Of a DNA stretch of 13,407 nt, positions 1 through 13,407 are shown piece by piece. The translations under genes were made by a program, and so were the position numbers. Numbering within the stretch: position 1 is the first letter of the stretch; each line of letters starts with the position of its first letter. Origin of the DNA: Promethearchaeota archaeon (lineage in GTDB: Archaea > Asgardarchaeota > Lokiarchaeia > Sigyniarchaeales > SOKP01); assembly GCA_048938855.1 (NCBI GenBank), contig JBHLLT010000026.1:1-13407 (forward strand), in the 5' to 3' direction. The notes beneath the pieces are model-generated. The model saw nothing but the letters and a program-made list of their open reading frames with translations. It did not search any database and was not told the origin of the DNA.

Positions 1-558
1 TTCGAGAAAATTCTAAATGAACAACCAATTCTTCAAAATGTAATTAAAGCTAATTCCCAATTTACTAAAAATCTGACCATAATAAAGGGAGGGATTAAAT
101 CAAATGTTGTACCTGATCAGTGTGAAGCTGTGATTGATTTCAGACTATTACCAGGTCAAAATGTTGAAATGATACTAGATGGATTGAAAACACTGATTGG
201 GAGTTTAGGGTATCAAGTAAAAGATAAACCCATAGGTCTTCCTAAAGAAGTCTTTGTATATTTGGAGATAGAAGAAGCTGGAGAGGCATCTTTTTTCTGT
301 GATTGGAAAAACTCACCCGCATTAGAGGTTTTTTATTCAATGGTAGAGAAACATTATGAGCGAAAACCTTTTTATTTCTTGATGCCTGGTAGTGCAGATG
401 CTAAATTTTATAGAAACACAAATTACTGTCAATCTACAATTCTATTTGGTCCTGGAAATGCACAAGCTGCTCATGCAACCAATGAATCGGTAAGTGTACA
501 AGATTTCATAAACGCTATTAAAGTTTTTACTTTGTTTGCTTATAAGTATCTAAAATAA
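1..558 (+). CDS. M20/M25/M40 family metallo-hydrolase (ArgE/DapE-like), 5'-truncated by the window edge
   Basis: Frame 1 is open from base 1 (FEKILNEQ...IIKGGIKSNVVPDQCEAVIDFRLLPG), matching the M20 dimerisation motif GGxxxNVVPxxxxAxxDxR. The C-terminal GSADAKFY...FGPG...AHATNESV matches the M20 terminal metal-ligand His motif. The GTG at 130 is internal. Confidence 0.88.
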   Translation, partial: FEKILNEQPILQNVIKANSQFTKNLTIIKGGIKSNVVPDQCEAVIDFRLLPGQNVEMILDGLKTLIGSLGYQVKDKPIGLPKEVFVYLEIEEAGEASFFCDWKNSPALEVFYSMVEKHYERKPFYFLMPGSADAKFYRNTNYCQSTILFGPGNAQAAHATNESVSVQDFINAIKVFTLFAYKYLK

Positions 559-660
559 CTATTAACCAAGAGATTTCAAATTAATGTTTATAGAAGTTTA
601 TAAGATTCTGCTACTATTATTTTATTAATTTCAAATAAATGAGATATTTTTTAGAACAAA

Positions 661-1842
661 TTGCCTATACAAAAAATTGAAGACACGGTCATCCTTTTAG
701 ATGCCTCTCGATCTATGTTAAGAAAAGATTTTAAACCAAGTAGACTAGCTATTGAATTAGAAGCGACAAAGAGTTTCATTCAGTCAAAATTATCTTTAGA
801 TATGAAAGATAGATTATCAATAATCACATTTGGGGAAGTTACAAAAAAATTAATTAATTTTGCTTACGATCAGGAAAAGTTAATTAAATCTTTAAAGAAC
901 ATCCAGGTTTCAGGTAAAGGATTGTTACATGAAGGTATAGCATTTGCACTTCAAATTCTTGTGGAAGAGATGAGGAAAGTTGGCGGAAAAACGTCTCGAA
1001 TATTAATCATCACTGACAATAAATTAAATACCGATATCAATAAATTAAGAAAAATGGTTAATATAGCTAAAGGCTTAGGTGTGATTATAGATGCATGTCA
1101 ATTAGGAGGTATAGAGGATAATGGTGAAGATTCTTTAAAGAGAATTACTCAGTTAACTGGAGGAAATTTTGAACATTTTAATAATTCAAAAGCAATTATT
1201 AATACCATTAATGAATTTGCTTCTAAAAAGGATGTAAAACAAACAATAGACTATTTTTCTCCCAATAAAGAGGATAATTCTGCTCCTTTAATAAGCGAGA
1301 TTGCATTACCGTTAAGAAGACCTTCATTATTAGAGATTAGGTTATTGACGAAAGGAGGCGGCAGAGGACACGTAAAGTGTCAAATTTGTCACTCTTTTAA
1401 GGCAGCAGTTACAGGATCTGATTTTTTAAGTGAAGGGCGTTATTGTCCTAGTTGTGATCGAGCAATGCATTTATCTTGTGCTGCCATGTGGGCTAAAAAA
1501 ACAGAATATAAGGAAAATGTGTTTCGATGTCCGTTTTGTTTTTTCTTATTAGAATTACCAACAGCAGCTTTAAAGTTAATTAAAGAAAAAACAGAAGAAT
1601 TTCCAGAAATAAAAATTGCTGAAGAAGATGAAATATTAGAAACGAATATGGTATTAGTGCCCGATGATGAAATCGATCAGATCAACGCTTCTTGTTCTTA
1701 TTGTCATAGTATTTTCTTAGGTGATTATAAAGTTTATAAATGTGAAAATTGTCAAGCTTATTATCATGAACCTTGTTTTCGAAAAGTATATAATGAACTT
1801 AAAGCTTGTCGATATTGCGGAGCAAAAATAATCTTAAAATAA
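661..1842 (+). CDS. vWA-domain protein with two C4HC3 RING/PHD-like zinc fingers (Ssl1/p44-like architecture)
   Basis: N-terminal VILLDASRSM (MIDAS DxSxS) followed by KDFKPSRL, then IITFG, GIAFALQIL and RILIITD, all typical of vWA. Finger 1 at 1378-1539 is C-x2-C-x18-C-x2-C-x4-H-x2-C-x16-C-x2-C. Finger 2 at 1693-1818 is C-x2-C-x12-C-x2-C-x4-H-x2-C-x10-C-x2-C. TTG start. Confidence 0.88.
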   Translation: MPIQKIEDTVILLDASRSMLRKDFKPSRLAIELEATKSFIQSKLSLDMKDRLSIITFGEVTKKLINFAYDQEKLIKSLKNIQVSGKGLLHEGIAFALQILVEEMRKVGGKTSRILIITDNKLNTDINKLRKMVNIAKGLGVIIDACQLGGIEDNGEDSLKRITQLTGGNFEHFNNSKAIINTINEFASKKDVKQTIDYFSPNKEDNSAPLISEIALPLRRPSLLEIRLLTKGGGRGHVKCQICHSFKAAVTGSDFLSEGRYCPSCDRAMHLSCAAMWAKKTEYKENVFRCPFCFFLLELPTAALKLIKEKTEEFPEIKIAEEDEILETNMVLVPDDEIDQINASCSYCHSIFLGDYKVYKCENCQAYYHEPCFRKVYNELKACRYCGAKIILK

Positions 1843-1918
1843 TTAGTCTTAAAAAAACTAATCTGAACATATTTAAATTATTTAAGCATAGGATACTTTA
1901 TATTATTAAATTTAACTA

Positions 1919-4000
1919 TTGAGGTCGATTAATTTAGTTAATACAAAAAAAGGTAAGTGGGTAATAACTTCAGCGTGGCCATATGTGAATGCTACTCCTC
2001 ATTTAGGGAACTTAATTGGAAGTACCTTGTCTGCTGACGTATTTGCAAGATATCTTAGAATGAAAGGTGAAGAAGTGGTGTTTGTTTCAGGATCAGATTC
2101 TCATGGGACACCAATTTCCGTTGAAGCAAAAAAGATTAAAGCCTCTACAGGAAAAGATATAACCGCTGAAGAATTAGCATTTAAATACCATAATATTATA
2201 AAAGATTTACATCAAAAATGGCAAATTTCTTTTGATAATTATACAATTACTCATAATCCTACCCACATTGAATTTGTAAAGAAATTTTATTTAGATATCC
2301 AAAAAAATGGGTATATCTTAGAAAAAGAGATCGAATCACTTTATTGTGAACAGGATAAATTGTTTTTACCTGATAGATTTGTAGAAGGAATATGTCCGCA
2401 TTGTCAATTTGAAGATGCACGAGGAGATCAATGTGATAACTGCCAGAAATTATTAACTCCCGAAGAACTCATTAAACCTAGATGTGTTATATGCGGAAAT
2501 ACTCCAACAATTAAAAAGTCAAGACATTGGTATTTTGATCAACCAAAATTACAGGATAAATTAAAAAAATTAATTGAAGAAAATGAAATTATCCCTGCTA
2601 ATGCACGACAAATGTGTTTAAATAATATAGCTGAAGGATTACCTGAACGTGCAATTACACGAGATTTAGTATGGGGGATTCCGGCTCCATTTGAGAATGC
2701 TGAAAACAAAACTATATATGTATGGTTTGAAGCAGTATTAGGATATATTACTGCTGTTAAAGAATGGGCTGAAAAACTAATCAATGATCCGAGCAAATTC
2801 AATTATTTTTGGAACGACCCTAATACAAAAACAGTTTATTTCATAGGAAAAGATAATATAATTTTTCATTTAATTGTCTTTCCTGGATTATTATTAGCTT
2901 ATAATGATAACAAAAAAGAAAGTGAAAAACTTGTATTACCATATAATGTATCATCTACAGAATTTTTAATGTATGAGAATCAGAAATTCTCAAAATCAAG
3001 AGGAATTGGTATATGGATTGATGATGCGCTAAAATTAGCTCCATTAGATTATTGGAGATTTAATTTGATATTTAATCGTCCTGAGACGAGTGATACCTCC
3101 TTTCTATGGTCAGAATTTGAAAATAACATAAAAACTCTCAATGATAATATTGGTAATTTCATTCATCGCACTTTAACATTTATAGAAAAGCAATTTAATA
3201 GTAAAATCCCAGAAAAAATAGAATACGATGACATTGATAAAAAATTTATAGAGAGTATAAAAAATATAATCAGAGAAGTAGGAGAAAGTCTTTATAATTT
3301 TAAAATAAGAAAAGCAATAAGAGACGTTGTTAATTTTGGTAAAGAAGGGAATATATATTTGAATGATAAGGCCCCATGGCATTTGATCAAAAAAGATAAA
3401 AAAGCTGCTGGACATGTTTTTAATATTTGTTCTCAAGCAGTACATGCTTTAGCAGTATTATTAGGTCCTTTTATACCTGGAACTTCTGAAAAGATTTTGT
3501 CTTATTTAAATGCTCCAAAATTAAAAGATATCTCTTGGGAAAGTGTTAATGAAAATTCTTTGAAGGCAGGGGGAAGTATTAAGAAACCTATCCCTCTTTT
3601 TCAAAAATTAGAGATTAAAGATATTCAAAATGATTATGAAAAATTAAAAGAGAAAAAACCAGAAGAAGGTGAGAAAGAATTGATTTCATATGATGATTTT
3701 AAAAAGTTGGATATTCGAGTTGCTTTAGTTGAAAATGTTGAGAAAGTACCAAAAGCTGATAAGCTGTATAAAATTTCCGTTGATTTAGGAACAGAGAAAA
3801 GAACTTTAGTTGCTGGTTTAGCTGAATATTATAAAATCGATCAATTAAAGGGAAAAAAAATAATTGTATTAACGAATTTAGAACCACGAAAATTGAGAGG
3901 AATTTTAAGCCAAGGAATGCTTTTAGCTGCTGTTGAGGGCAATGATGTATCTATTTTAGTACCTGATAAGGATTTGCCTCCAGGAGCAAGAGTAGAATAA
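1919..4000 (+). CDS. metG: Methionine--tRNA ligase with C-terminal tRNA-binding (Trbp111/EMAP II-like) domain
   Basis: TSAWPYVNATPHLGN (HIGH motif), SGSDSHGTPI, zinc knuckles CEQD/CPHC/CDNC/CVIC, YVWFEA, FIGKDNIIFH, KFSKSRG (KMSKS motif), and C-terminal FKKLDIRV...NLEPRKLRGILSQGMLLAA. The exact start (TTG 1919) is uncertain. Confidence 0.98.
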   Translation: MRSINLVNTKKGKWVITSAWPYVNATPHLGNLIGSTLSADVFARYLRMKGEEVVFVSGSDSHGTPISVEAKKIKASTGKDITAEELAFKYHNIIKDLHQKWQISFDNYTITHNPTHIEFVKKFYLDIQKNGYILEKEIESLYCEQDKLFLPDRFVEGICPHCQFEDARGDQCDNCQKLLTPEELIKPRCVICGNTPTIKKSRHWYFDQPKLQDKLKKLIEENEIIPANARQMCLNNIAEGLPERAITRDLVWGIPAPFENAENKTIYVWFEAVLGYITAVKEWAEKLINDPSKFNYFWNDPNTKTVYFIGKDNIIFHLIVFPGLLLAYNDNKKESEKLVLPYNVSSTEFLMYENQKFSKSRGIGIWIDDALKLAPLDYWRFNLIFNRPETSDTSFLWSEFENNIKTLNDNIGNFIHRTLTFIEKQFNSKIPEKIEYDDIDKKFIESIKNIIREVGESLYNFKIRKAIRDVVNFGKEGNIYLNDKAPWHLIKKDKKAAGHVFNICSQAVHALAVLLGPFIPGTSEKILSYLNAPKLKDISWESVNENSLKAGGSIKKPIPLFQKLEIKDIQNDYEKLKEKKPEEGEKELISYDDFKKLDIRVALVENVEKVPKADKLYKISVDLGTEKRTLVAGLAEYYKIDQLKGKKIIVLTNLEPRKLRGILSQGMLLAAVEGNDVSILVPDKDLPPGARVE

Positions 4001-4001
4001 A

Positions 4002-5249
4002 CTAGAGTTTTAAAGAAAATAATGGATTCAACCGAGCTATTATTTCGCCAAGATCCAACTGAAGGGTTTTAAGAATAACATCTCTTCCTCGATATTCAAA
4101 TTGCAATTCACTAACATTTCTAACTATTTTTAGCCTACTAACACGCGATTTTAAAGATGTAATAAAATATCTTTGGGTCTGATATTCTAATATATCTAAG
4201 ACATCTTCAATATCAGGAAAGGAATATCCCCCTCCATGTGGTAGTATATTAGCATTAAAGAGTAGATCTAAAAGACCTAGTCTTTCTCCTCTTTCTAAGA
4301 GATTTTGATTTTTAAGAGTTCTTTCAGATAAATTTAATTTTCCTTTAAATAGATAAGCAGAAATATCAGCTCTGAGAGTTGTCGGAAAAATGTCTGATCC
4401 TTTCTTTTTATTATTTGTATCAGTACAGTTACTTCCTAAATACATGGTATTATAATCTTTTAAAAATTGGTGAGGTTGGTTGCAAATAATTTCATATCCA
4501 TAATCAAAAAGATTATTTGCAATTATTTCTCTTTTCAAATTAGAAAACTCTAATGCTTTCTTATTTAGTTTAAGATATTCCTTCGCTTCAGAGTCCATTA
4601 AGATGTATTGAGTACCAAATTTAGTCTTTTCTTCAATTGCAATTTCTTTTAATTTTTTTGATTTATCAATATAAAGTCCTATATCTTCATTTTGATCATC
4701 TCTAAATTCAGGAGCAGATCCATGAATTAGGAACACATAGGGGGGAAGCTGTAAATCAGATAAGTTCTTAGTTTCAAAGCAATTAATAAAGTGATTTGAT
4801 ACTCCATAATCCCAATTAATTTTAATGTGATTATAATAGAGTTCTTTAGCCTTTATATCATCAATTTTTTTAATCAAATCATAAGGATCTGGTAATTCTT
4901 CTAACCCTCCCACTAAAATACCGCAACAATTCGGTTTTGTATTTAAAAAAATAATCTTATCATTTCCATCTCCCCAATTTAATTTACCACCATACCCTAA
5001 ACCTGAATTCCATCTAAATTTATTTCGTGAAATCGTTTCATCCGGAGATGATATAAAAGTTGCACAAGGTTCAAACCCATATTTTTCCTGAATGATATGC
5101 ATCATTGACAATCCATATTTCATGTTAGCCCTACACAATTTGGATGTTCCATCATTTAAACCAGTAGAAAAAATATACTGATTAGCTCTGTCTAATAATT
5201 CTGACTTAGATAACTCCGAGATTTCTTGAGAAAGGATGGATGAACCCAT
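4002..5249 (-). CDS. Divergent RtcB-like protein (putative RNA 2',3'-cyclic phosphate/3'-phosphate ligase)
   Basis: Motifs in RtcB order: SPD70, NCC109GI, GVSN152H153FI, LIH176GS, PH260QF, PH338GGG, and the C-terminal VSELQFEYRGRDVI...IIARLNPLFSLK414L. They parallel RtcB MPD, DINCGV, GSGNHFLE, IHTGS, AHN, HGAG and EEAPGAYK..V...LVARMRPIGVAKG. Confidence 0.75.
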   Translation of the reverse strand: MGSSILSQEISELSKSELLDRANQYIFSTGLNDGTSKLCRANMKYGLSMMHIIQEKYGFEPCATFISSPDETISRNKFRWNSGLGYGGKLNWGDGNDKIIFLNTKPNCCGILVGGLEELPDPYDLIKKIDDIKAKELYYNHIKINWDYGVSNHFINCFETKNLSDLQLPPYVFLIHGSAPEFRDDQNEDIGLYIDKSKKLKEIAIEEKTKFGTQYILMDSEAKEYLKLNKKALEFSNLKREIIANNLFDYGYEIICNQPHQFLKDYNTMYLGSNCTDTNNKKKGSDIFPTTLRADISAYLFKGKLNLSERTLKNQNLLERGERLGLLDLLFNANILPHGGGYSFPDIEDVLDILEYQTQRYFITSLKSRVSRLKIVRNVSELQFEYRGRDVILKTLQLDLGEIIARLNPLFSLKL

Positions 5250-5374
5250 TTTTTAGATCAATTTATATCTATTGTATGTTCTACCAAAAAATATATGGAA
5301 AGTATGTATATATAAGATTAATGATATAAATTTGAATTGAGTGAGTCGCTAATACCGAGGAAAAAATAGTTACT

Positions 5375-5998
5375 ATGACAAATTCACCTAATTTCATTCT
5401 ATTTGATTCGTTAAAAGGAATACAAACTAATGGAAAATTTACAGGTTCAATTATATCAAAATGGGAAGACAATGTATTATTCTCTGATAACATAATTGTT
5501 TCAGATATAGAAGGAATTAGTATTTCTGAGGGATTACTTATAGGATTTGACAAAATTGAGGGACGATTCATCCCTTTCTCAAAAAGTTATGATTTTAAAT
5601 GGAAAATGAATGAAAATCCATTGGAATATTCTATTCTAATTCCTGAAAATACGATGGAACAATATGATCAAGGTCAATTTTCGAATGAATTTCCTTTTAC
5701 TATAAATTTACTACATACTGCTGCTCTATATATTAATGATTTGAAAGGTGGTGTCAATCATTTAGATTTCTTTACAGGAGAAATTCTAAAAAATCCAATT
5801 TCAATGATTAGGAACGGTATTATAGTTGCTGATAGAGTAGTCATTGATGATAATGGTGATCCAGTATTTTATGATTGCTTAATTGTTGGAAGGGATAAAA
5901 ATGATGACCTCAAAATAAGTTATGAGCCTATAATTAATGTGGATGATAAAGTACTTGAATATATTATAATATTAGGAATTGAAGAATTGAAAATATAA
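5375..5998 (+). CDS. Hypothetical protein (207 aa, acidic, probably beta-rich)
   Basis: Long ATG-started ORF in AT-rich DNA, co-oriented with the ATPase and 17 nt upstream of it. No recognisable motif. Confidence 0.75.
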   Translation: MTNSPNFILFDSLKGIQTNGKFTGSIISKWEDNVLFSDNIIVSDIEGISISEGLLIGFDKIEGRFIPFSKSYDFKWKMNENPLEYSILIPENTMEQYDQGQFSNEFPFTINLLHTAALYINDLKGGVNHLDFFTGEILKNPISMIRNGIIVADRVVIDDNGDPVFYDCLIVGRDKNDDLKISYEPIINVDDKVLEYIIILGIEELKI

Positions 5999-6015
5999 AT
6001 GTAATCATTAAAACT

Positions 6016-7230
6016 ATGCTTCTTTTTGAAAATAAACAACAAAAATTACTTAATTTCTTAAAATTCACAGGTTCTCCTTTTAAGAAATTTGTATCAACTG
6101 GTGAAATCGAAGAGGATCTTGGATTAGTTCAATCAAGACAAGATTTATTATACTCTATAATCAATATTATTGAAAAGAGTGGAAATTTCATTTTACCAAT
6201 AATAGGTGATGTAGGAACTGGAAAAACTCATTTATATTGGGCTTTAAAACATGAATTATATTATTATAATATTGTTTATATTTCTTTAGAGGAAGTTATT
6301 AAGAAGTTTTATTATTACATATATTCCGAATTTATTGAAAATATGGGTATTGATGTGTTGAGAAATATCGCTAGGAGATTATGTAATAATTGGGGGGCTT
6401 TAAAGAGAAAATTTGGCTTTTTTCATATTGCGGATCTTGTAAAAATCAGAGAAGTTGCTTTTGAAAAGTGGGCGCCTAACTTTGAACATAAAACAGCAAT
6501 AAAAGATATAATCAATGCATTTACAGCTCATCAAATTGATCCGTATAAAAAAATTGAAGTTGAGCGATGGTTTTTGGGTGAAGTTATTGATATAAGAGAA
6601 TTATCAAGATTAGATTTAAGTCAGGATTTAAGGGGAAGGAACCATGCCTATACAATGCTAAAAATATTAGTAGAAAATTCAATGATAAATAGTGTCTTAT
6701 TCATTGATGATTTCGAAAAAGTCATTTCTATGATGAAACCTATATCAATTGAAGAAGAAAAAGAAGAAGTTTTTGATCGAAGTTGGCTATATGGGAGTAG
6801 AGAATCTCCAGAAAAACATAAAGCAGAGAAATTACTTGATAAAATTCTTAATTTAAACCAAATTAAGGGGTTAAGGATAATTATTACCTTAAAATCAATA
6901 GAATATCTTGACGAAATTAAAGAGATGTTAGAAAAAGATTATAATCTCTTAAATATATTAAAGGAACCGATATTTTTATCAAACTTCATAGAGAAGGATC
7001 TTTCAACATTTTATAAGAAAAATCTAGAATTCTTTTTTGGAAATATCAACTATTTTGATTATTTCAGAGATTTTTCAGATTCCTATTTTCCACTTAACGA
7101 GGAAGTTCTTAAGGATATTTATAATAAGTCAAAAGGAAATCCCAGAGAAATAATAAAGATTTTAAATAAGATTTTTAACGAAATCGTATTGTCCAATGAA
7201 GATTTGGGTGAGATTCTTAAACATTATTAA
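6016..7230 (+). CDS. P-loop ATPase (AAA+-like; possibly related to BrxD/DUF2791 or ExeA-type ATPases)
   Basis: Walker A IIGDVGTGKTH, Walker B VLFIDDFE, C-terminal SKGNPREII lid motif, and a long helical insert containing RWFLGE between Walker A and B. Confidence 0.82.
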   Translation: MLLFENKQQKLLNFLKFTGSPFKKFVSTGEIEEDLGLVQSRQDLLYSIINIIEKSGNFILPIIGDVGTGKTHLYWALKHELYYYNIVYISLEEVIKKFYYYIYSEFIENMGIDVLRNIARRLCNNWGALKRKFGFFHIADLVKIREVAFEKWAPNFEHKTAIKDIINAFTAHQIDPYKKIEVERWFLGEVIDIRELSRLDLSQDLRGRNHAYTMLKILVENSMINSVLFIDDFEKVISMMKPISIEEEKEEVFDRSWLYGSRESPEKHKAEKLLDKILNLNQIKGLRIIITLKSIEYLDEIKEMLEKDYNLLNILKEPIFLSNFIEKDLSTFYKKNLEFFFGNINYFDYFRDFSDSYFPLNEEVLKDIYNKSKGNPREIIKILNKIFNEIVLSNEDLGEILKHY

Positions 7231-7243
7231 TAAATAAAATTCT

Positions 7244-7978
7244 TTATCTCTTTGTTAATAGAATTTTTGCATAGGTGTCGATCTCCATTAGATATTTCTC
7301 TTTATACTCAAATTCCCAACTTGATTCTACAATTTTTTTTCGAAATGATTCTAAATTAATGGGAGATCTGAAATAAATTAATAATAAAGCCCTAATTGCC
7401 CGTGGTTTTAAGATGATGTAGTTATCCGAATAGTCTAAAGAATGAAATAATTCATTGAATTCAGGCATATATTTTTCAAAAATCCTTGTACATAGGTTAA
7501 TTAACTCTGAATCTTTTGAATTTAAAGCAAGAAAAAGATTCTTTCTTATAAATAGAGGAATATCATCTAAATTTAAAAATGCTCTAAGAGAATTGATTTT
7601 GATTGGTTTATATTCGTCATTTATCGCATATCCAATTAATTTAATAATTTCTTCCGTCAATCTAGTTTTTTCTATAATTTTTTTTATAGCTTGGATAATT
7701 TCGTTTCTAATCCATCTATCTGAATTGTAATATGTATTTATTATCAATCTCAAATATTTCTCTTCCAAAGGGATTAATCTCCCAATCTCGCCAATTAAAT
7801 ATATTAAGTTTAATTTTATTTTTTCGAAAATTTTAGGATCTGGGTAATCAATAAAGAAATCGAGAAATTTTAAAAAACTTTCATGTGGATTTTTACTTAA
7901 TTCAATTAAAAAATCATTGATTTTTTCTGGGTTATTTGACTCCTTAACATCATTAAATACTTTTTCAATTGCAACCAT
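7244..7978 (-). CDS. HEAT/ARM-repeat-like alpha-helical protein
   Basis: Repeated amphipathic helix pairs at roughly 35-40 aa spacing: IKLNLIYLIGEIG, NSDRWIRNEIIQAIKKI, NDEYKPIKINSLRAF, NSKDSELINLCTRIF. Confidence 0.65.
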   Translation of the reverse strand: MVAIEKVFNDVKESNNPEKINDFLIELSKNPHESFLKFLDFFIDYPDPKIFEKIKLNLIYLIGEIGRLIPLEEKYLRLIINTYYNSDRWIRNEIIQAIKKIIEKTRLTEEIIKLIGYAINDEYKPIKINSLRAFLNLDDIPLFIRKNLFLALNSKDSELINLCTRIFEKYMPEFNELFHSLDYSDNYIILKPRAIRALLLIYFRSPINLESFRKKIVESSWEFEYKEKYLMEIDTYAKILLTKR

Positions 7979-8142
7979 AAAAACCTACTTTTCTATAATT
8001 ATATATAATTTAATTAGATAATACAATTGACTATCAATAAATATCTCCTTTATAAGAGATTTTAGAGAAGGTAAATCCTTTAATTCTACTTCTTTGTTTA
8101 ATTGCAAAAAGATTAAAAACAAATAAAAATAAAATTACAGTA

Positions 8143-8148
8143 GAGGAG
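8143..8148 (+). promoter_or_regulatory. Shine-Dalgarno-like site
   Basis: GAGGAG ends 5 nt before the ATG at 8154. Confidence 0.5.
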
Positions 8149-8153
8149 AATCA

Positions 8154-8813
8154 ATGGAAAATGTAGAGAACTATATCCAATGCTATAATGATTATAAAAA
8201 AGGTAATTATGCATATGGAACTGTAACTTCTATTGAGGATATTAAGAACGCAATAAAAAATAAAAAGAGATTTGTGTTTACAAGGGGAGGAGCAAGAATT
8301 GAGATTATCATTAGCCTAATCACAATCTCTATAGGATTAATAATTACTTTAGGTCTATATGCCTTTTTCGGAAATCTTTTCACTTATAGTCTTTATAGTT
8401 TTTTGATAAGTCTTTTGCCTATTTTTGTCTTTGGACTATGTGGCTCTAGATTTTTATTTCCAGGATTATTTAAACTTCGGTCAAACTTTATAATTCTTGG
8501 CGCTGAAGGAATAGTTTACAAATTGTTGACAGGAGATGTTAAAAATTTTAACTGGAATGATGTTAGTATGGACATCATGGAAAAAACTGTAGAGATTTCA
8601 AGAACTAAACATTTAATTCACTTTGAAGAAATATATCTATCAATGCCAAATGGAGTCCTTTTAAAAAGTGGAGATTATACTTCAAAAGAATTCCCTAAGA
8701 GATTTACGGGGAAACAACGGGGTACACTTGTCTTTTCCACAATTTTATATTATTATAACTACTTTAAATTAGGATTATTAGAACCATCAAAAGGAGAATT
8801 ATATGGAGAATAA
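8154..8813 (+). CDS. Membrane protein, two TM helices plus a soluble C-terminal domain (bacterial PH-like?); paralog 1
   Basis: Hydrophobic segments IEIIISLITISIGLIITLGLYAFF and LYSFLISLLPIFVFGLCG, followed by FIILGAEGIVYK...FNWNDV, a pattern typical of bPH/YcxB-like domains. Confidence 0.75.
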   Translation: MENVENYIQCYNDYKKGNYAYGTVTSIEDIKNAIKNKKRFVFTRGGARIEIIISLITISIGLIITLGLYAFFGNLFTYSLYSFLISLLPIFVFGLCGSRFLFPGLFKLRSNFIILGAEGIVYKLLTGDVKNFNWNDVSMDIMEKTVEISRTKHLIHFEEIYLSMPNGVLLKSGDYTSKEFPKRFTGKQRGTLVFSTILYYYNYFKLGLLEPSKGELYGE

Positions 8814-9387
8814 TATTTTAGAAGAATTGGAAGAAGCTTACAAAAGTTATAAGAAAAGTGAATATATATTTGGCAAATACGGAGCAGGAGAACAAATTGA
8901 GAAAGCGTGTATGGAAGGAAAAATATTTGTACTAAAAGCTAATAAAAAGGTTTTTATTGGTTTTATAGCATTGTTAGCTCCCTTTATTTTTCCTTTTACT
9001 ATAGCGGAAGGTTTTATCATAATTTTAATTTCTGTCTTAATCGCAGATTCTATAGTTGGAATATTGTTACTTATTTTAAGTATTACTTATATAAGGTCGT
9101 TTATTGTTATTGGGCCGTCAGGATTTTATTATCGAAAAGTTGTTAAAAAAAGATTTTTTCAATGGAAGGATGTAACTCTTGCTCAAGCAAGTATCCATAC
9201 AACTATGGGAGGATACAGAAGACGCTCTGTAACAACAGGTCGGGTAGTAATCAAAATTCCTAATAAACATCAATTAACTTTTGATTCAACACGTTATAGA
9301 AGTAAAGAATTTGTGAGAAAAGTCAAACGAATGATGTTTATACGTCTTTTTGAAATTTATTATAAACTCGCTAATAAAAAGCTTTGA
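8803..9387 (+). CDS. Membrane protein, two TM helices plus a soluble C-terminal domain (bacterial PH-like?); paralog 2
   Basis: Hydrophobic segments VFIGFIALLAPFIFPF and FIIILISVLIADSIVGILLLILSITYI, then FIVIGPSGFYYR...FQWKDV. It overlaps the upstream gene by 11 nt, with AGGAG at 8792-8796. Confidence 0.75.
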   Translation: MENNILEELEEAYKSYKKSEYIFGKYGAGEQIEKACMEGKIFVLKANKKVFIGFIALLAPFIFPFTIAEGFIIILISVLIADSIVGILLLILSITYIRSFIVIGPSGFYYRKVVKKRFFQWKDVTLAQASIHTTMGGYRRRSVTTGRVVIKIPNKHQLTFDSTRYRSKEFVRKVKRMMFIRLFEIYYKLANKKL

Positions 9388-9436
9388 AAATATAGAATAA
9401 AAAAAATTAGAAGAGAAAATTCGAATAAATTACTCG

Positions 9437-9466
9437 AATAAGCAGGATAAGAAAAAGCTTATTTTT
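9437..9466. terminator. Possible terminator between convergent genes
   Basis: AATAAGC (9437-9443) and GCTTATT (9457-9463) form an inverted repeat that runs into a T tract. An A-run near 9399-9407 gives a T tract on the minus strand. Confidence 0.3.
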
Positions 9467-9472
9467 AGGTTG

Positions 9473-9991
9473 TTATAATGTTATCTGAATTTTATTATTT
9501 AATTCGGAAGCTATTTTAATTTGTTCCTCTTCAGGTATTTTCAGGATGTCTAATTTGAATACTCCATTTTGTTGATCATCATAGGGCATGCCTGAGGGCA
9601 AAGGAACGATATGCCAATGAACGTGTGAATTACCTTGATGGCTTCCAAGAGATAATATATAAATTCTCTTAGGTTTTAATACATCTATAATCGCTTTTGT
9701 AATAGTATAAATTTTACTTTGAATCGAGAGATAGTCCTCTTGATTGAAATCAAGAACTACACCTTCTTTATGCTTTTTTGGTGCTACTAATGTCCAACCA
9801 TATAATCGAGGATAAGCATCAAGAAATGAAATAATTTCCTCATCTTGATAAACAATGTGAGCGGGATATTTTGGATTGCCTTTTAGAATTTCACATATAA
9901 AACAAGGACCTGTTTGTGCTCTTTCATTATACTTTTTGACATCTAATTTATATCTGATATAATTATTATTATAATAATTATAGTCTCTCAT
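9473..9991 (-). CDS. HIT (histidine triad) family nucleotide hydrolase
   Basis: N-terminal CFIC, then IVYQDEEIISFLDAYP..GWTLVAPKKH, and the triad HVHWHIVP (HxHxHxx). Confidence 0.95.
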   Translation of the reverse strand: MRDYNYYNNNYIRYKLDVKKYNERAQTGPCFICEILKGNPKYPAHIVYQDEEIISFLDAYPRLYGWTLVAPKKHKEGVVLDFNQEDYLSIQSKIYTITKAIIDVLKPKRIYILSLGSHQGNSHVHWHIVPLPSGMPYDDQQNGVFKLDILKIPEEEQIKIASELNNKIQITL

Positions 9992-10013
9992 GCTTATTAC
10001 TAAGTATATTAAA

Positions 10014-10021
10014 CTTTAAAA
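10014..10021 (-). promoter_or_regulatory. Candidate TATA box for a leaderless HIT transcript
   Basis: The minus strand reads TTTTAAAG, centred about 26 nt upstream of the ATG at 9991. The AT-rich background lowers its significance. Confidence 0.3.
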
Positions 10022-10045
10022 AATTGCTCAATTATTTATTTATAG

Positions 10046-10062
10046 AAAAAAGAAAGAAAAAA
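10046..10062 (-). terminator. Archaeal oligo(T) terminator candidate for the redox operon
   Basis: The minus strand reads TTTTTTCTTTCTTTTTT starting about 12 nt after the TusA stop codon. Confidence 0.55.
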
Positions 10063-10074
10063 TTAATTTTATAC

Positions 10075-10311
10075 TTACTTTACTGCTTCAAAATACATAT
10101 ACCATTGTTCATCATCATCAATGAATTCTGTTCCTAAATGTTTATGCTTTGTTTTTGCTAAATCGCGTGGAACGGATTCACTGGCAGGTTTATAATCTGT
10201 TATTACTTTTAAAACAGTCCCAGGTCTCATTTTCATGAGTTGTTTCTTAGTTTTTAAAGCTGGAACAGGACATACTAACCCGCAGACATTTAATTCCATA
10301 TCATATTTCAT
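10075..10311 (-). CDS. tusA: TusA/SirA family sulfur carrier protein (78 aa)
   Basis: LNVCGLVCPVPALKTKKQL...PGTVLKVITDYKPASESVP contains the CPxP TusA motif. The likely start is the ATG at 10311, which has an upstream AAGGAG; the ORF-track start at 10377 overlaps the upstream gene. Confidence 0.9.
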   Translation of the reverse strand: MKYDMELNVCGLVCPVPALKTKKQLMKMRPGTVLKVITDYKPASESVPRDLAKTKHKHLGTEFIDDDEQWYMYFEAVK

Positions 10312-10345
10312 GTTCTTTATCTCCTTTATTTTTTTAATTAAAACT

Positions 10346-12814
10346 TTAATCACAAACAATTGAGAATAATGGCTCATCCATATCAGGTTCAGCTTTCATC
10401 TCAAGTTCCATTAACTGAACTAAACGTAAAGCTTCATATCTCACTTTATTGGGCTCAAGTCTAATATTTCTTGAGATATCCGATATAGTACTTGAACCTT
10501 GAAGGGTTATGTAATCTAATACTTGTTGCCTTGGCGTCTTTTCGAAGTTCATTAATTCTCGCTTTGATTTTAGATTAATAGCAGTTTTCAACTCTTCCTC
10601 ATCAACTTCTCCTTGATCGAATAATCCCTTTTCAATTGCTTTTTCGACAAGTTCTTTACCTCGTTCTGTCCATATTACAACTGTAGTATAACCATCATTT
10701 GAACCTACTTCACCTGCAGTGAGATCAGAATAGATTGCAGGGAAGTCTTGACAGTGAGCACAGAAATGGTTGCAACTCAAACATCTTCTTGCTTCTTGTA
10801 GAGCCATATCTTCATTGAACATTTTATCAATCTCTTCAAAACTCCAATTAATTTCTTCAGTTGCATTATCTAGAGTTTCTGGTTTTAATGAATAATCTTT
10901 TGGTGGTTTTTTAGGTCCAGTGAAAAATGAATTCTCTCTCTTAAATCTTCCTTCCATTAAATTTTGTCCCTTCAAATATCGGTCAATTGAAAAGGCTGCT
11001 TCCTTTCCGTGAGCGATAGCAGCAATCGCTACAGCTTTAGAATTACTAATAATATCTCCACCAGCAAAAACTCCCGGTATATTTGTTTCAAAAGTGACTT
11101 CATTTACTTTTATCTTATTCCGCTCTTTTTCTAATTTATTATTTGTTGCAGCATCTATTTGTTCGAAATCTACTGCTTGGCCAACTGCGATTACAATTGA
11201 ATCAACGGATATCTCGTAATCTGAGCCCTCAATCTTGTTTAATGGCCTTCTTCCATTTTTATCAGGATTACCCCACTCAATATTATAACATTTTAAAACT
11301 AATTTATTCTCTTTATTCTGTGTAATTTTTAAGGTTGAAGTTTTAAAATGATATTCCATAAATTCCATCTCATTTTCAGGAATATCTCTTAACACCAGTT
11401 CTAGTTGTTCCTCTGACATAATATCAACAAGGTGAACCTTCTCAGCCCCCAATCTAAGAGCCGTTTGAGCAACATCAACTGCAACTGCTCCACCTCCAAT
11501 TATACCTAAAGTTTTCCCTTTAAATTCTTCTTTATTCTCCCAGTACCGATACTTTCTATCCATTAGAAAACTAATCGCTACATGAACATTTGGTAAATCT
11601 TCCCCTTCTAAGTGTAAAGTACGAGGTTTATATTGGCCAGTTGCTATAAAAATAGCTTTAAATCCGTCATTCTTTAAATCATCAATAGTCATTTCAGGAC
11701 CTAATGGCTTATTAAGGACTACTTCAACACCCGAGTCTATTATCCTACCTACATCATAATCTAATACATAATTAGGCAGTCTAAATTGAGGTACACCGAA
11801 TCTTAACATTCCTCCTGTTTGGTCTGTTTTTTCAAATATGGTTGGAGCATATCCCATTCTCCTCAAGAAATATGCTGCAGTCAATCCAGCTGGTCCAGAT
11901 CCAATAATTGCAACTTTTTTAGCATTTTTGAGAGATTTATCTTTTGCTTTCGATTTCTTTTTAGCCCTTTCAATTTCCCATTCTGTAACAAATTTCTTCA
12001 ATTCGCGAATGGCAACTGGATGGTCATCTCCAATTAAAGTACATCCATGTTCACATTCATTTGTACAAATTCTTCCACATATAGATGGAAGAGGATTATT
12101 TTCTCTAATTAAATCTACAGCATCTTGGTACTTTCCTTGACGTATTAATGATATATATCCTTGAGCATTTACACCAGAAGGACAATTATTACAACATGGA
12201 GAACATACTAAACCCTTATCAGTTTGGGCAGTTCTCATTTGAGAACTACAGAATAAACCAATTTTTAAAATATCTCTGTTCATTTCTTCTTCAATTTCAG
12301 CAGCCCCACGCATTTCACATGGGACTCCAACAATTCCTATTGGATCAAAAGTCTTGCCAGTAAGCTCTACTAATTGTTCTAAAACTCCAGATCTACCATA
12401 AATCACACCTGCTTTCTGTACTACTTCATCAGGATCCGAAACAATATCAGCAGTAGGTTTTTCATCATCTTCTTGAACCATTACCATTTCTTTAAGTGTC
12501 TCGTTTTCTAACAATTCTTTAGCAAATGTTGTTACAAAACCTCCGTTTGAGGCTTTCGCTAAAATTTCAGGATTTTTACTCCTTAACGAATATATTGCCA
12601 AAGGTTTTTTCTCTTTAAATTTCTTTTGAATTACTTGAGGGCAAGTTTGATAACATTTCCCACAATCTTGCCCATCTCTCTCTAAAATACAATAATCCTT
12701 AAGCGTTGGACGTTTAACTTCCATTACAATATGCTTACATGAACCAGCACATAATCCACATCCTTGACAAAGCCCGGCATCTACAATTTCGTCACTTAAT
12801 AATTTAAAACTCAT
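10346..12814 (-). CDS. Mosaic iron-sulfur flavoprotein: 2x[4Fe-4S] ferredoxin, split FrhB/FdhB-family domain with an inserted GltD/SudA-like FAD/NAD(P) oxidoreductase, and a C-terminal winged HTH
   Basis: Ferredoxin: CQGCGLCAGSC...C-x8-CGKCYQTCP. FrhB first part: ASNGGFVT, IVGVPCEMRG, IGLFC. GltD-like module: SPCCNNCP...NPLPSICGRIC..CEHGC, IIGSGPAGL, GGMLRFGVPQFRLP, GGGAVAVD, VFAGGD, EARRCLSC. FrhB resumes: CAHCQDF...SDLTAGEVGS.DGYTTVVIWTERGKELVEKA. Tail: RQQVLDYITLQGSSTISDISRNIRLEPNKVRYEALRL. Confidence 0.88.
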   Translation of the reverse strand: MSFKLLSDEIVDAGLCQGCGLCAGSCKHIVMEVKRPTLKDYCILERDGQDCGKCYQTCPQVIQKKFKEKKPLAIYSLRSKNPEILAKASNGGFVTTFAKELLENETLKEMVMVQEDDEKPTADIVSDPDEVVQKAGVIYGRSGVLEQLVELTGKTFDPIGIVGVPCEMRGAAEIEEEMNRDILKIGLFCSSQMRTAQTDKGLVCSPCCNNCPSGVNAQGYISLIRQGKYQDAVDLIRENNPLPSICGRICTNECEHGCTLIGDDHPVAIRELKKFVTEWEIERAKKKSKAKDKSLKNAKKVAIIGSGPAGLTAAYFLRRMGYAPTIFEKTDQTGGMLRFGVPQFRLPNYVLDYDVGRIIDSGVEVVLNKPLGPEMTIDDLKNDGFKAIFIATGQYKPRTLHLEGEDLPNVHVAISFLMDRKYRYWENKEEFKGKTLGIIGGGAVAVDVAQTALRLGAEKVHLVDIMSEEQLELVLRDIPENEMEFMEYHFKTSTLKITQNKENKLVLKCYNIEWGNPDKNGRRPLNKIEGSDYEISVDSIVIAVGQAVDFEQIDAATNNKLEKERNKIKVNEVTFETNIPGVFAGGDIISNSKAVAIAAIAHGKEAAFSIDRYLKGQNLMEGRFKRENSFFTGPKKPPKDYSLKPETLDNATEEINWSFEEIDKMFNEDMALQEARRCLSCNHFCAHCQDFPAIYSDLTAGEVGSNDGYTTVVIWTERGKELVEKAIEKGLFDQGEVDEEELKTAINLKSKRELMNFEKTPRQQVLDYITLQGSSTISDISRNIRLEPNKVRYEALRLVQLMELEMKAEPDMDEPLFSIVCD

Positions 12815-12816
12815 CC

Positions 12817-13407
12817 TTATCCCTCTTTTATTTTAATTTCTTTCACAACTCCAATTGGATCAATCGTAAATTCAACTGAACCATTCTTATAGGTTCCCTC
12901 AACCACATCAAAAACGTGGGTTTTATAATCTTCAAAATTATCATTTTCCCCTATTTTGGCTTTAAATCCACCGTAGTACAAGTTTGATAAATTCATGTTC
13001 CCTGCTATCTTTCGAATTTTATCTGTTATATCTTTATATTTGTTTGGATCTTTGTTATTAATTGCATCCCTTAATTCGATTTCTAAGTCTAGTAAATTTT
13101 TCCTATATTTCTTTGTCGTTTCACTCACTTCTAAATTATTAGCGTGTTCATACGTCTCTATAATTTTAATTGTTAATGAAATAAAATGATCTCCTCCTAA
13201 TAGTCCTGAAATCAATGGTAATTCTTCAATTAATCTTCCCGTAAATACATCTTCTAACAAACTCCCCGAATTAGGAATTCTTCCTTTCGGTAATCTTGAT
13301 GTTGGGAGCGTAAACCTAAAGAAATTTCCAACTACATCTGGTAAGCTTTCAGTAATCTCGTCATCCCTATCAGCTAGTTTATCAGTTGCTCCTTTTTCAG
13401 AATGTTC
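12817..13407 (-). CDS. 5'-truncated gene: C-terminus of an MvhG-like [NiFe]-hydrogenase small subunit plus an extension of about 150 aa resembling a degenerate large-subunit fragment
   Basis: The frame is open to the window edge (EHSEKGATDKLADRDDEITESLPDVVGNFFRFTLPTSRLPKGRIPNSGSLLEDVFTGR...). PDVVGNFFRFTLP (13303-13341) matches the MvhG/VhuG C-terminal PDPVGTFYRF(S/T)L motif. The TTG at 13260 is internal. The stop lies 2 nt from the next ATG. Confidence 0.6.
   Translation of the reverse strand, partial: EHSEKGATDKLADRDDEITESLPDVVGNFFRFTLPTSRLPKGRIPNSGSLLEDVFTGRLIEELPLISGLLGGDHFISLTIKIIETYEHANNLEVSETTKKYRKNLLDLEIELRDAINNKDPNKYKDITDKIRKIAGNMNLSNLYYGGFKAKIGENDNFEDYKTHVFDVVEGTYKNGSVEFTIDPIGVVKEIKIKEG

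Follow-up and report, generated by a model that had tools for sequence, protein, structure and literature searches.

An MvhG-type small subunit fused to a vestigial [NiFe] large-subunit fragment, a candidate nickel-free donor arm to Hdr in Asgard archaea

Elp-Hdr (ElpABC-HdrABC) of hydrogenotrophic methanogens, reported in Nature in 2025, passes electrons of F420H2 to Hdr through an FdhA that is truncated and inactive, an FdhB homologue and MvhD when nickel is scarce, and its F420H2-dependent bifurcation was measured (PMC12350162). With regard to Methermicoccus shengliensis, proteome intensities were listed for a cluster named 'FrhBG-HdrA2B2C2', which the authors read as an F420-dependent Hdr (PMC8630106). 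Here we describe a fusion gene of a Promethearchaeota archaeon (Asgardarchaeota; assembly GCA_048938855.1), which lies on the minus strand at the end of the analyzed stretch of 13,407 nucleotides (contig JBHLLT010000026.1, C24 hereafter, positions 1 to 13,407; "the window"). Its product joins an MvhG-type iron-sulfur (Fe-S) subunit to a Cys-free relic of the large subunit of [NiFe] hydrogenase. We propose, with a probability of about 0.72, that this 411-residue protein is a pseudo-hydrogenase, namely an intact MvhG-type wire fused to a dead, constrained relic, and that it serves as a nickel-free donor arm to Hdr.

Elp-Hdr is the closest functional precedent for the fusion system. In both cases a nickel-free donor arm of Hdr combines an FrhB/FdhB-type flavoprotein, MvhD and the remnant of a dead catalytic subunit (with HdrABC in one operon here), and a real Mvh-type hydrogenase is also present in both organisms. 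On the other hand, Elp-Hdr has as its relic an FdhA truncated by loss of the molybdopterin domain (ElpA) and does not include a hydrogenase small subunit, whereas the relic here is a hydrogenase large subunit fused to MvhG, for which we infer the function. As in Mvh-Hdr, an MvhG homologue is encoded at our locus (the first 256 residues, which keep the same 12 Fe-S Cys), MvhD and HdrABC adjoin in the same order, and the extension has the core fold of MvhA. However, MvhA is not encoded separately at our locus: some two thirds of the large subunit are missing, neither Ni-ligand motif is retained, the relic is fused, and the operon adds an FrhB(/GltD) flavoprotein and TusA/DsrE sulfur carriers. 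FrhAGB, the F420-reducing [NiFe]-hydrogenase (6QGR/6QGT, 3ZFS), likewise has a small subunit with FrhB, and FrhA ranks first among the structural matches of the relic, but the fusion sequence is nearer to MvhG than to FrhG and no catalytic FrhA occurs here. The cluster of M. shengliensis shares the order FrhB1-'FrhG'-MvhD-HdrA2, though the paper mentions no large-subunit relic (PMC8630106) and the Asgard operons contain DsrEFH/TusA in addition, their FrhB carrying a GltD insertion in most lineages. Finally, Nqo4/NuoD (49-kDa) of complex I and its counterparts in MBH/MBS/Ehr have also lost the Ni-binding Cys and kept a structural role beside a small-subunit homologue (Z = 9.7-11.5 in our structural search), but they belong to membrane complexes, as separate subunits of full size, and have a new site (quinone or other), whereas in the soluble Hdr system described here a stump of 155 residues is left, fused to the small subunit. 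The hybrid [FeFe]/[NiFe] hydrogenases (PMC11216029) represent a different fusion, and we found no description of the fused relic in the literature on MvhG-like, FrhBG and Asgard small-subunit or vestigial topics.

The fusion gene and its Cys-free extension

The reading frame of the fusion gene (12817-13407, minus strand) is still open at the window end (C24:1-13407), where a scaffold gap of 100 N (C24:13408-13507) lies inside the gene. Its translation was identical to the one quoted in an earlier note made from the letters alone, running from GSLLEDVFTGRLIEELPLISGLLGGDHFISLTIKIIETYEHANNLEVSETTKKYRKNLL through NLYYGGF to VEG...GSVEFTIDPIGVVKEIKIKEG, and its 196 visible residues contain no Cys, as that note had read. 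An identical overlap of 77 bp is present on both sides of the gap (window 13331-13407; region C24:13408-13584). The gap with the duplicated 77 bp is a scaffolding artefact, and both contig ends ought to have been merged. After collapsing the overlap, the true product has 411 residues, and P0002, a 94% identical protein from an independent contig, reads through the gap site uninterrupted and confirms this architecture. As it stands, the scaffold should lead a gene caller to a 470-aa product with a run of X and a duplicated stretch of 25 residues. The following features of the gene lie in the window.

13285..13407, minus strand: last 41 residues of the small-subunit domain (MvhG-like; 216-256 of 411); phmmer against PDB, full gene on C24 and P0002
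12820..13284, minus strand: Cys-free large-subunit relic of 155 residues (257-411), helical bundle plus three-stranded sheet; AlphaFold2, VIA, Foldseek and hhalign
13081..13263, minus strand: homologue of the L1 region, extension residues 8-68, GRLIEELPLISGLLGGDH...LEVSETTKKYRKNLL, matching GRxxEExPxIxxRICGxC...AxKLRxL; hhalign and hmmsearch
13186..13203, minus strand: degenerate Ni-binding motif LLGGDH in place of RICGxC; column pairing in hhalign and family alignments
12961..13008, minus strand: IAGNMNLSNLYYGGFK, extension residues 93-108, counterpart of 'GGRaiHP..iPGGf' of the large subunit; within the hhalign block
12829..12897, minus strand: terminal beta-sheet, extension residues 130-152, VEGTYKNGSVEFTIDPIGVVKEIKI, counterpart of the 'EAPRGxLxHxYxxDxxGxI' hairpin late in the large subunit; hhalign of the tail and structural alignment
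12817..12819, minus strand: stop codon of the fusion gene, with the next gene beginning 2 nt downstream; translation of the open reading frame

The N-terminal domain (residues 1-256) was recognized by PF01058 (Oxidored_q6) with 44-46 bits against a cut-off of 27 in our own protein as well as in P0002, P0022 and P0119. In the phmmer search against PDB, residues 93-256 aligned with 137-301 of 9sw2_E (E = 4.3e-15) and with 132-295 of 5odc_E (E = 1.7e-13), that is, nearly to the chain ends of the solved MvhG/VhuG (301/308 and 295/299), and the extension starts where these chains stop, residue 256 being paired with residue 301 of 9sw2_E. Since FrhG did not appear among the PDB sequence matches of the fusion protein, we assign the domain to the MvhG type. 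The full gene retains all 12 Cys of the MvhG Fe-S sites: the Cys columns (11, 14, 76, 109, 132, 135, 159, 167, 175, 179, 186 and 189) were conserved in 7/7 fusion proteins and in 9/9 canonical Asgard small subunits examined. These residues suffice for three [4Fe-4S] clusters (proximal, medial and distal), and the N-terminal Fe-S subunit is thus intact.

It is by profile-profile comparison, reverse hidden Markov model (HMM) search and fold only that the large-subunit homology of the extension becomes visible. The extension alone showed no Pfam family match, not even to PF00374 at E <= 10; DUF272 (E = 0.011), IR1-M and 4m1a (E = 0.22), its sole Pfam or PDB sequence matches, were taken as chance. 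In hhalign, a profile of 167 extension sequences matched the profile of Asgard group-3 large subunits with Prob 93% and P = 3.5e-7 (extension 10-68 versus large subunit 41-99), reproducing the alignment of the earlier note. When both profiles were broadened, the extension alignment (A3) including 114 distinct sequences with identity down to 25%, the match reached Prob 95.7% and P = 9.4e-9 over 115 columns (8-123 versus 38-179). The parallel between NLYYGGF and the PGGF motif, drawn in the earlier note, lies inside this significant block, in which IAGNMNLSNLYYGGFK stands opposite 'GGRaiHP..iPGGf'. Moreover, hmmsearch of 1.84 billion representative proteins with the extension profile gave 23 matches, consisting of family members or fragments and two bona fide NiFeSe_Hases (PF00374) proteins, P0262 (E = 3.6e-5, residues 39-103) and P0264 (E = 1.4e-4, residues 38-99), both matched at the L1 region. 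A repetitive protein of 902 aa (P0263, E = 4e-5) in the representative search was discarded as low-complexity noise. The likeness of the extension to the L1 region is far beyond chance.

The structure of the extension alone was predicted by AlphaFold2 with A3 at a predicted local distance difference test (pLDDT) score of 93.9 and a predicted template modeling (pTM) score of 0.88, giving five helices and a three-stranded sheet, and the extension is therefore predicted to fold as an independent, well-folded domain. The top ranks of Foldseek for this model were FrhA, MvhA, Nqo4 of complex I, the SHI alpha subunit, HoxH and HycE. VIA, a structural search independent of Foldseek, covered 48,161 chains, and all of its best 15 matches were [NiFe] large subunits or their complex-I/MBH/MBS homologues (Z = 9.6-13.4; 143-155 of the 155 residues aligned at 2.3-3.6 A), followed by an unrelated helical bundle at Z = 5.5. 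FrhA (6qgt_A, Z = 13.4) and MvhA (5odc_F, Z = 12.1) were aligned over 148/155 residues at 2.4-2.5 A root-mean-square deviation (rmsd), and the [NiFeSe] large subunit (Z = 12.6) and the actinobacterial-type one (Z = 12.3) over 147-148/155 residues with 2.3-2.5 A. By this structural comparison, the core fold of the large subunit is present in the extension. Thus, sequence profiles, the database-wide HMM search and the fold comparison are concordant, and the extension is a vestigial piece of the [NiFe] large subunit, as the earlier note had proposed for an MvhG-like subunit with a Cys-free fragment. According to the model, the relic has one third of the size of the [NiFe] large subunit and would represent a minimal core of it that still folds stably, with about 150 residues.

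With regard to the metal site, the note had read RxCGxC as replaced by GLLGGD. In both hhalign comparisons, RICGxC (L1) is aligned to LLGGDH, so that Gly30 and His33 (extension numbering) stand at the positions of the two Cys ligands; position 33 varies across the family. At the other end, the chain stops three residues past the hairpin aligned to about residue 398 of the 447-residue MvhA; the DPCxxC motif (L2) and the maturation-protease tail fall beyond this point, so they are not in the protein. In addition, no invariant Cys column was found in the extension in the family alignments (A2 and A3). With both Ni/Fe-ligand motifs gone, the relic cannot build a NiFe site, and the fusion protein would be incapable of H2 activation. 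In a distant family of the phylum (L044-L050 and L171), the L1 region of the relic (GRPIEEAPQIAATIYG) is more like that of true large subunits, and the relic terminates in a conserved ...IREWSCEL(R), whose single Cys the main clade does not have.

Conservation, distribution and operon context

The median ratio of nonsynonymous to synonymous substitution rates (dN/dS) was 0.109 for the extension and 0.107 for the Fe-S domain (Nei-Gojobori, 435 pairs), to be read with the caveat that dS is near saturation (pN 0.13 versus pS 0.63). The extension, with its dN/dS of about 0.11, is under purifying selection equal in strength to that on the Fe-S domain. G95, N96, S100 and G106 in the IAGNMNLSNLYYGGFK segment are invariant in the family, and several non-structural residues of the extension are likewise invariant (R17, E21, E46, R61, N96 and S100).

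Of 400 genomes sampled from the phylum, 80 carried the fusion, in each case as a single open frame, including 64/134 genomes of its own family and other families of the order; both closed genomes among those fetched (G135 and G138) carry it, and in the distant family it is found at 26-36% identity. More than 300 database proteins of 403-430 aa have the same fused architecture, annotated as 'F420-reducing hydrogenase gamma subunit' (JGI) or 'NuoB family protein'. Among them, a 403-aa cluster comes from Methermicoccaceae methanogens, and therefore the family is not restricted to Asgard archaea.

The fusion gene belongs to a minus-strand operon on C24, in the order TusA, DsrE, DsrE/F, DsrH, DsrE2-like, HdrC, HdrB, HdrA, MvhD, fusion gene, FrhB-GltD (822 aa) and TusA. 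This order was the same in 23/23 loci inspected, with FrhB directly downstream of the fusion gene in each, and no MvhA-like open reading frame was found in any of these 23 operons. Two genes of the operon follow the fusion gene in the window.

10346..12814, minus strand: downstream partner of 822 aa, FrhB/FdhB-like, interrupted by a GltD-type NAD(P)H/FAD module, with Fe-S motifs; Pfam
10075..10377, minus strand: TusA sulfur-carrier gene at the operon end; Pfam TusA, E = 1.6e-18, position conserved

The Pfam domains of the 822-aa partner are FrhB_FdhB_N, Fer4_20, Pyr_redox_2 and FrhB_FdhB_C: the FrhB/FdhB-like protein is split by a GltD/DPD-type module (Fer4_20 and Pyr_redox_2), and it carries a CxxCxxC ferredoxin motif in its N-terminal part. 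The ortholog of this partner in the distant family is an ordinary FrhB of about 350-390 aa, which lacks the GltD insert. The sulfur-relay genes frame the Hdr operon, with TusA, DsrE, DsrE/F, DsrH and DsrE2-like upstream (C24:18243-20185) and the second TusA downstream. This framing points to a persulfide or polysulfide bound to a protein, and not to CoM-S-S-CoB, as the substrate of HdrBC. The downstream TusA reading frame opens with the ATG at 10377 and shares its first 32 nt (10346-10377) with the end of the FrhB/GltD gene; its true start may be an internal Met (MKYDMELNV...), as the Pfam TusA match begins at residue 27.

A genuine [NiFe] hydrogenase locus is also present in the same genome (C77:6390-10995), where a reading frame matching HdrA and MvhD is followed by a small subunit of 265 aa and a large subunit of 435 aa; therefore, the fusion is an addition and not the only Hdr donor of the organism. 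Large subunits were found in 148/151 sampled genomes of the phylum, and the fusion thus coexists with real hydrogenases. An MvhG/MvhA pair on a small contig (C42, 2526 bp) was considered as the organism's own MvhA and rejected: its proteins are 87-95% identical to those of Thermoplasmatota/Thermoplasmatales, and the pair is probably a contamination of the bin (7% estimated) and not an Asgard gene. Elsewhere in the window, a plus-strand gene (661-1842) adjoining the methionyl-tRNA synthetase gene encodes a 393-aa protein with a vWA-like N-terminal region and a CxxC-rich C-terminal half containing several zinc-finger/RING-like motifs.

Electron input and rival explanations

Although the operon has the look of a hydrogen-driven one, a flavoprotein most likely feeds it, analogous to Elp-Hdr. 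In the mechanism we propose, the FrhB(/GltD) flavoprotein would oxidize F420H2 and/or NAD(P)H, and electrons would enter at its flavin. They would then pass through the small-subunit clusters to the [2Fe-2S] cluster of MvhD and the flavin of HdrA, and HdrBC would reduce a disulfide or persulfide, probably delivered by the TusA/DsrE carriers. The relic would retain those portions of the large subunit which pack against the small one, and may shield or stabilize the face of the proximal cluster or dock the flavoprotein. A structural cap in a pseudo-hydrogenase electron wire is a plausible role, which fits the lost Ni ligands and a conserved operon with FrhB and without MvhA.

Several points weigh against this proposal. 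FrhB in Frh and MvhD in Mvh both bind to the small subunit at its distal end. Here one small subunit would have to serve FrhB and MvhD alike, and the proximal cluster may turn out to be a dead end. The location of the relic where a large subunit would sit is tentative: the full-length AlphaFold model (pLDDT 53), which came from a shallow alignment of 71 sequences with 71-87% identity, is unreliable and uninformative on domain packing. The genome has F420 biosynthesis genes and the partner has a GltD-type NAD(P)H module, so that both F420H2 and NAD(P)H remain candidate donors. A new activity of the relic without nickel is also conceivable. The fusion proteins of Methermicoccaceae were found in metagenome-assembled genomes (MAGs) only, and the 'FrhG' of the M. 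shengliensis isolate is at most a putative carrier of the extension.

The explanation that survives best beside the proposed cap is that the relic is an adaptor, docking the FrhB/GltD flavoprotein or opening the proximal cluster to electrons, with the direction of flow along the small-subunit wire unchanged from that of a hydrogenase. In its favor, FrhB is encoded immediately downstream in all loci inspected, the constraint on the extension equals that on the Fe-S domain, several non-structural residues are invariant, and in Elp-Hdr the relic subunit ElpA belongs to the donor arm. In Frh, however, FrhB sits at the distal cluster, away from the large-subunit side; we regard an adaptor as possible but improbable, at about one chance in five. 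At a similarly low level we place the related idea that the relic was kept and remodeled as a functional module, which may gate or open the proximal [4Fe-4S] cluster to electrons of FrhB/GltD or bind a new ligand through the invariant Arg, Glu, Asn and Ser.

It was also suggested in the earlier note that the relic is circularly permuted, its C-terminal hairpin being derived from the N-terminal RIEGH...DDxGxV hairpin of the large subunit. The motifs do resemble each other, and the N-terminal hairpin (15-33) was the second-best hhalign match of the tail (P = 0.16), but the best one was the hairpin after EAPRGxLxH (large subunit 353-366, P = 0.005). Moreover, the structural alignments were sequential, placing residues 7-155 of the model onto 38-398 of MvhA and 40-402 of FrhA, and exclude large-subunit residues 1-37. 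Because the alignment is sequential and the tail matches 353-366 better, the relic is a collinear mini large subunit, and a permutation is very unlikely. The parts missing are about residues 1-37 of the large subunit, most of the middle (about 180-340) and everything after about 400.

Equally doubtful is that the fusion still belongs to a working hydrogenase, either with a large subunit supplied in trans (e.g., from C77) or with a different H2-activating site in the relic. Although a genuine large subunit is encoded in this genome, as in nearly all sampled genomes of the phylum, that of C77 has its own adjacent small subunit, the fused relic would fill the place of a large subunit, and the four Cys ligands of Ni/Fe are gone in every member, with no MvhA in the 23 operons. 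The last explanation, an assembly chimera at the 100-N gap with its duplicated flanks or a chance likeness to generic helical bundles, is practically dismissed by the more than 300 gap-free proteins of the same architecture on many independent contigs, including closed genomes, and by the Z scores of 9.6-13.4 for large subunits against <= 5.5 for generic bundles.

Implications for Asgard archaea and hydrogenases

In reconstructions of Asgard metabolism and in hydrogen-based models of eukaryogenesis, Mvh-type genes beside HdrABC are counted as evidence for H2-driven electron bifurcation. The fusion operon resembles Mvh-Hdr yet has no nickel site. If the relic was indeed kept and remodeled as a functional module, which we hold improbable, a hydrogenase 'wire' whose input is nickel-free would operate in Asgard archaea and Methermicoccaceae, and many Asgard calls of 'group 3c hydrogenase-Hdr' would be wrong, including those of H2-dependent sulfur reduction via TusA/DsrE. 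One preprint on a cultured Asgard archaeon described a 3c hydrogenase coupled to sulfur reduction by TusA/DsrE-Hdr; if such calls rest on the fusion gene, the electron donor has been misassigned. After Elp-Hdr, the fusion would also be a second and independent example of an Hdr donor arm in which a catalytic subunit has shrunk to a scaffold. Finally, a folding core of about 150 residues of the [NiFe] large subunit would be relevant to the evolution of hydrogenases and complex I and to protein design.

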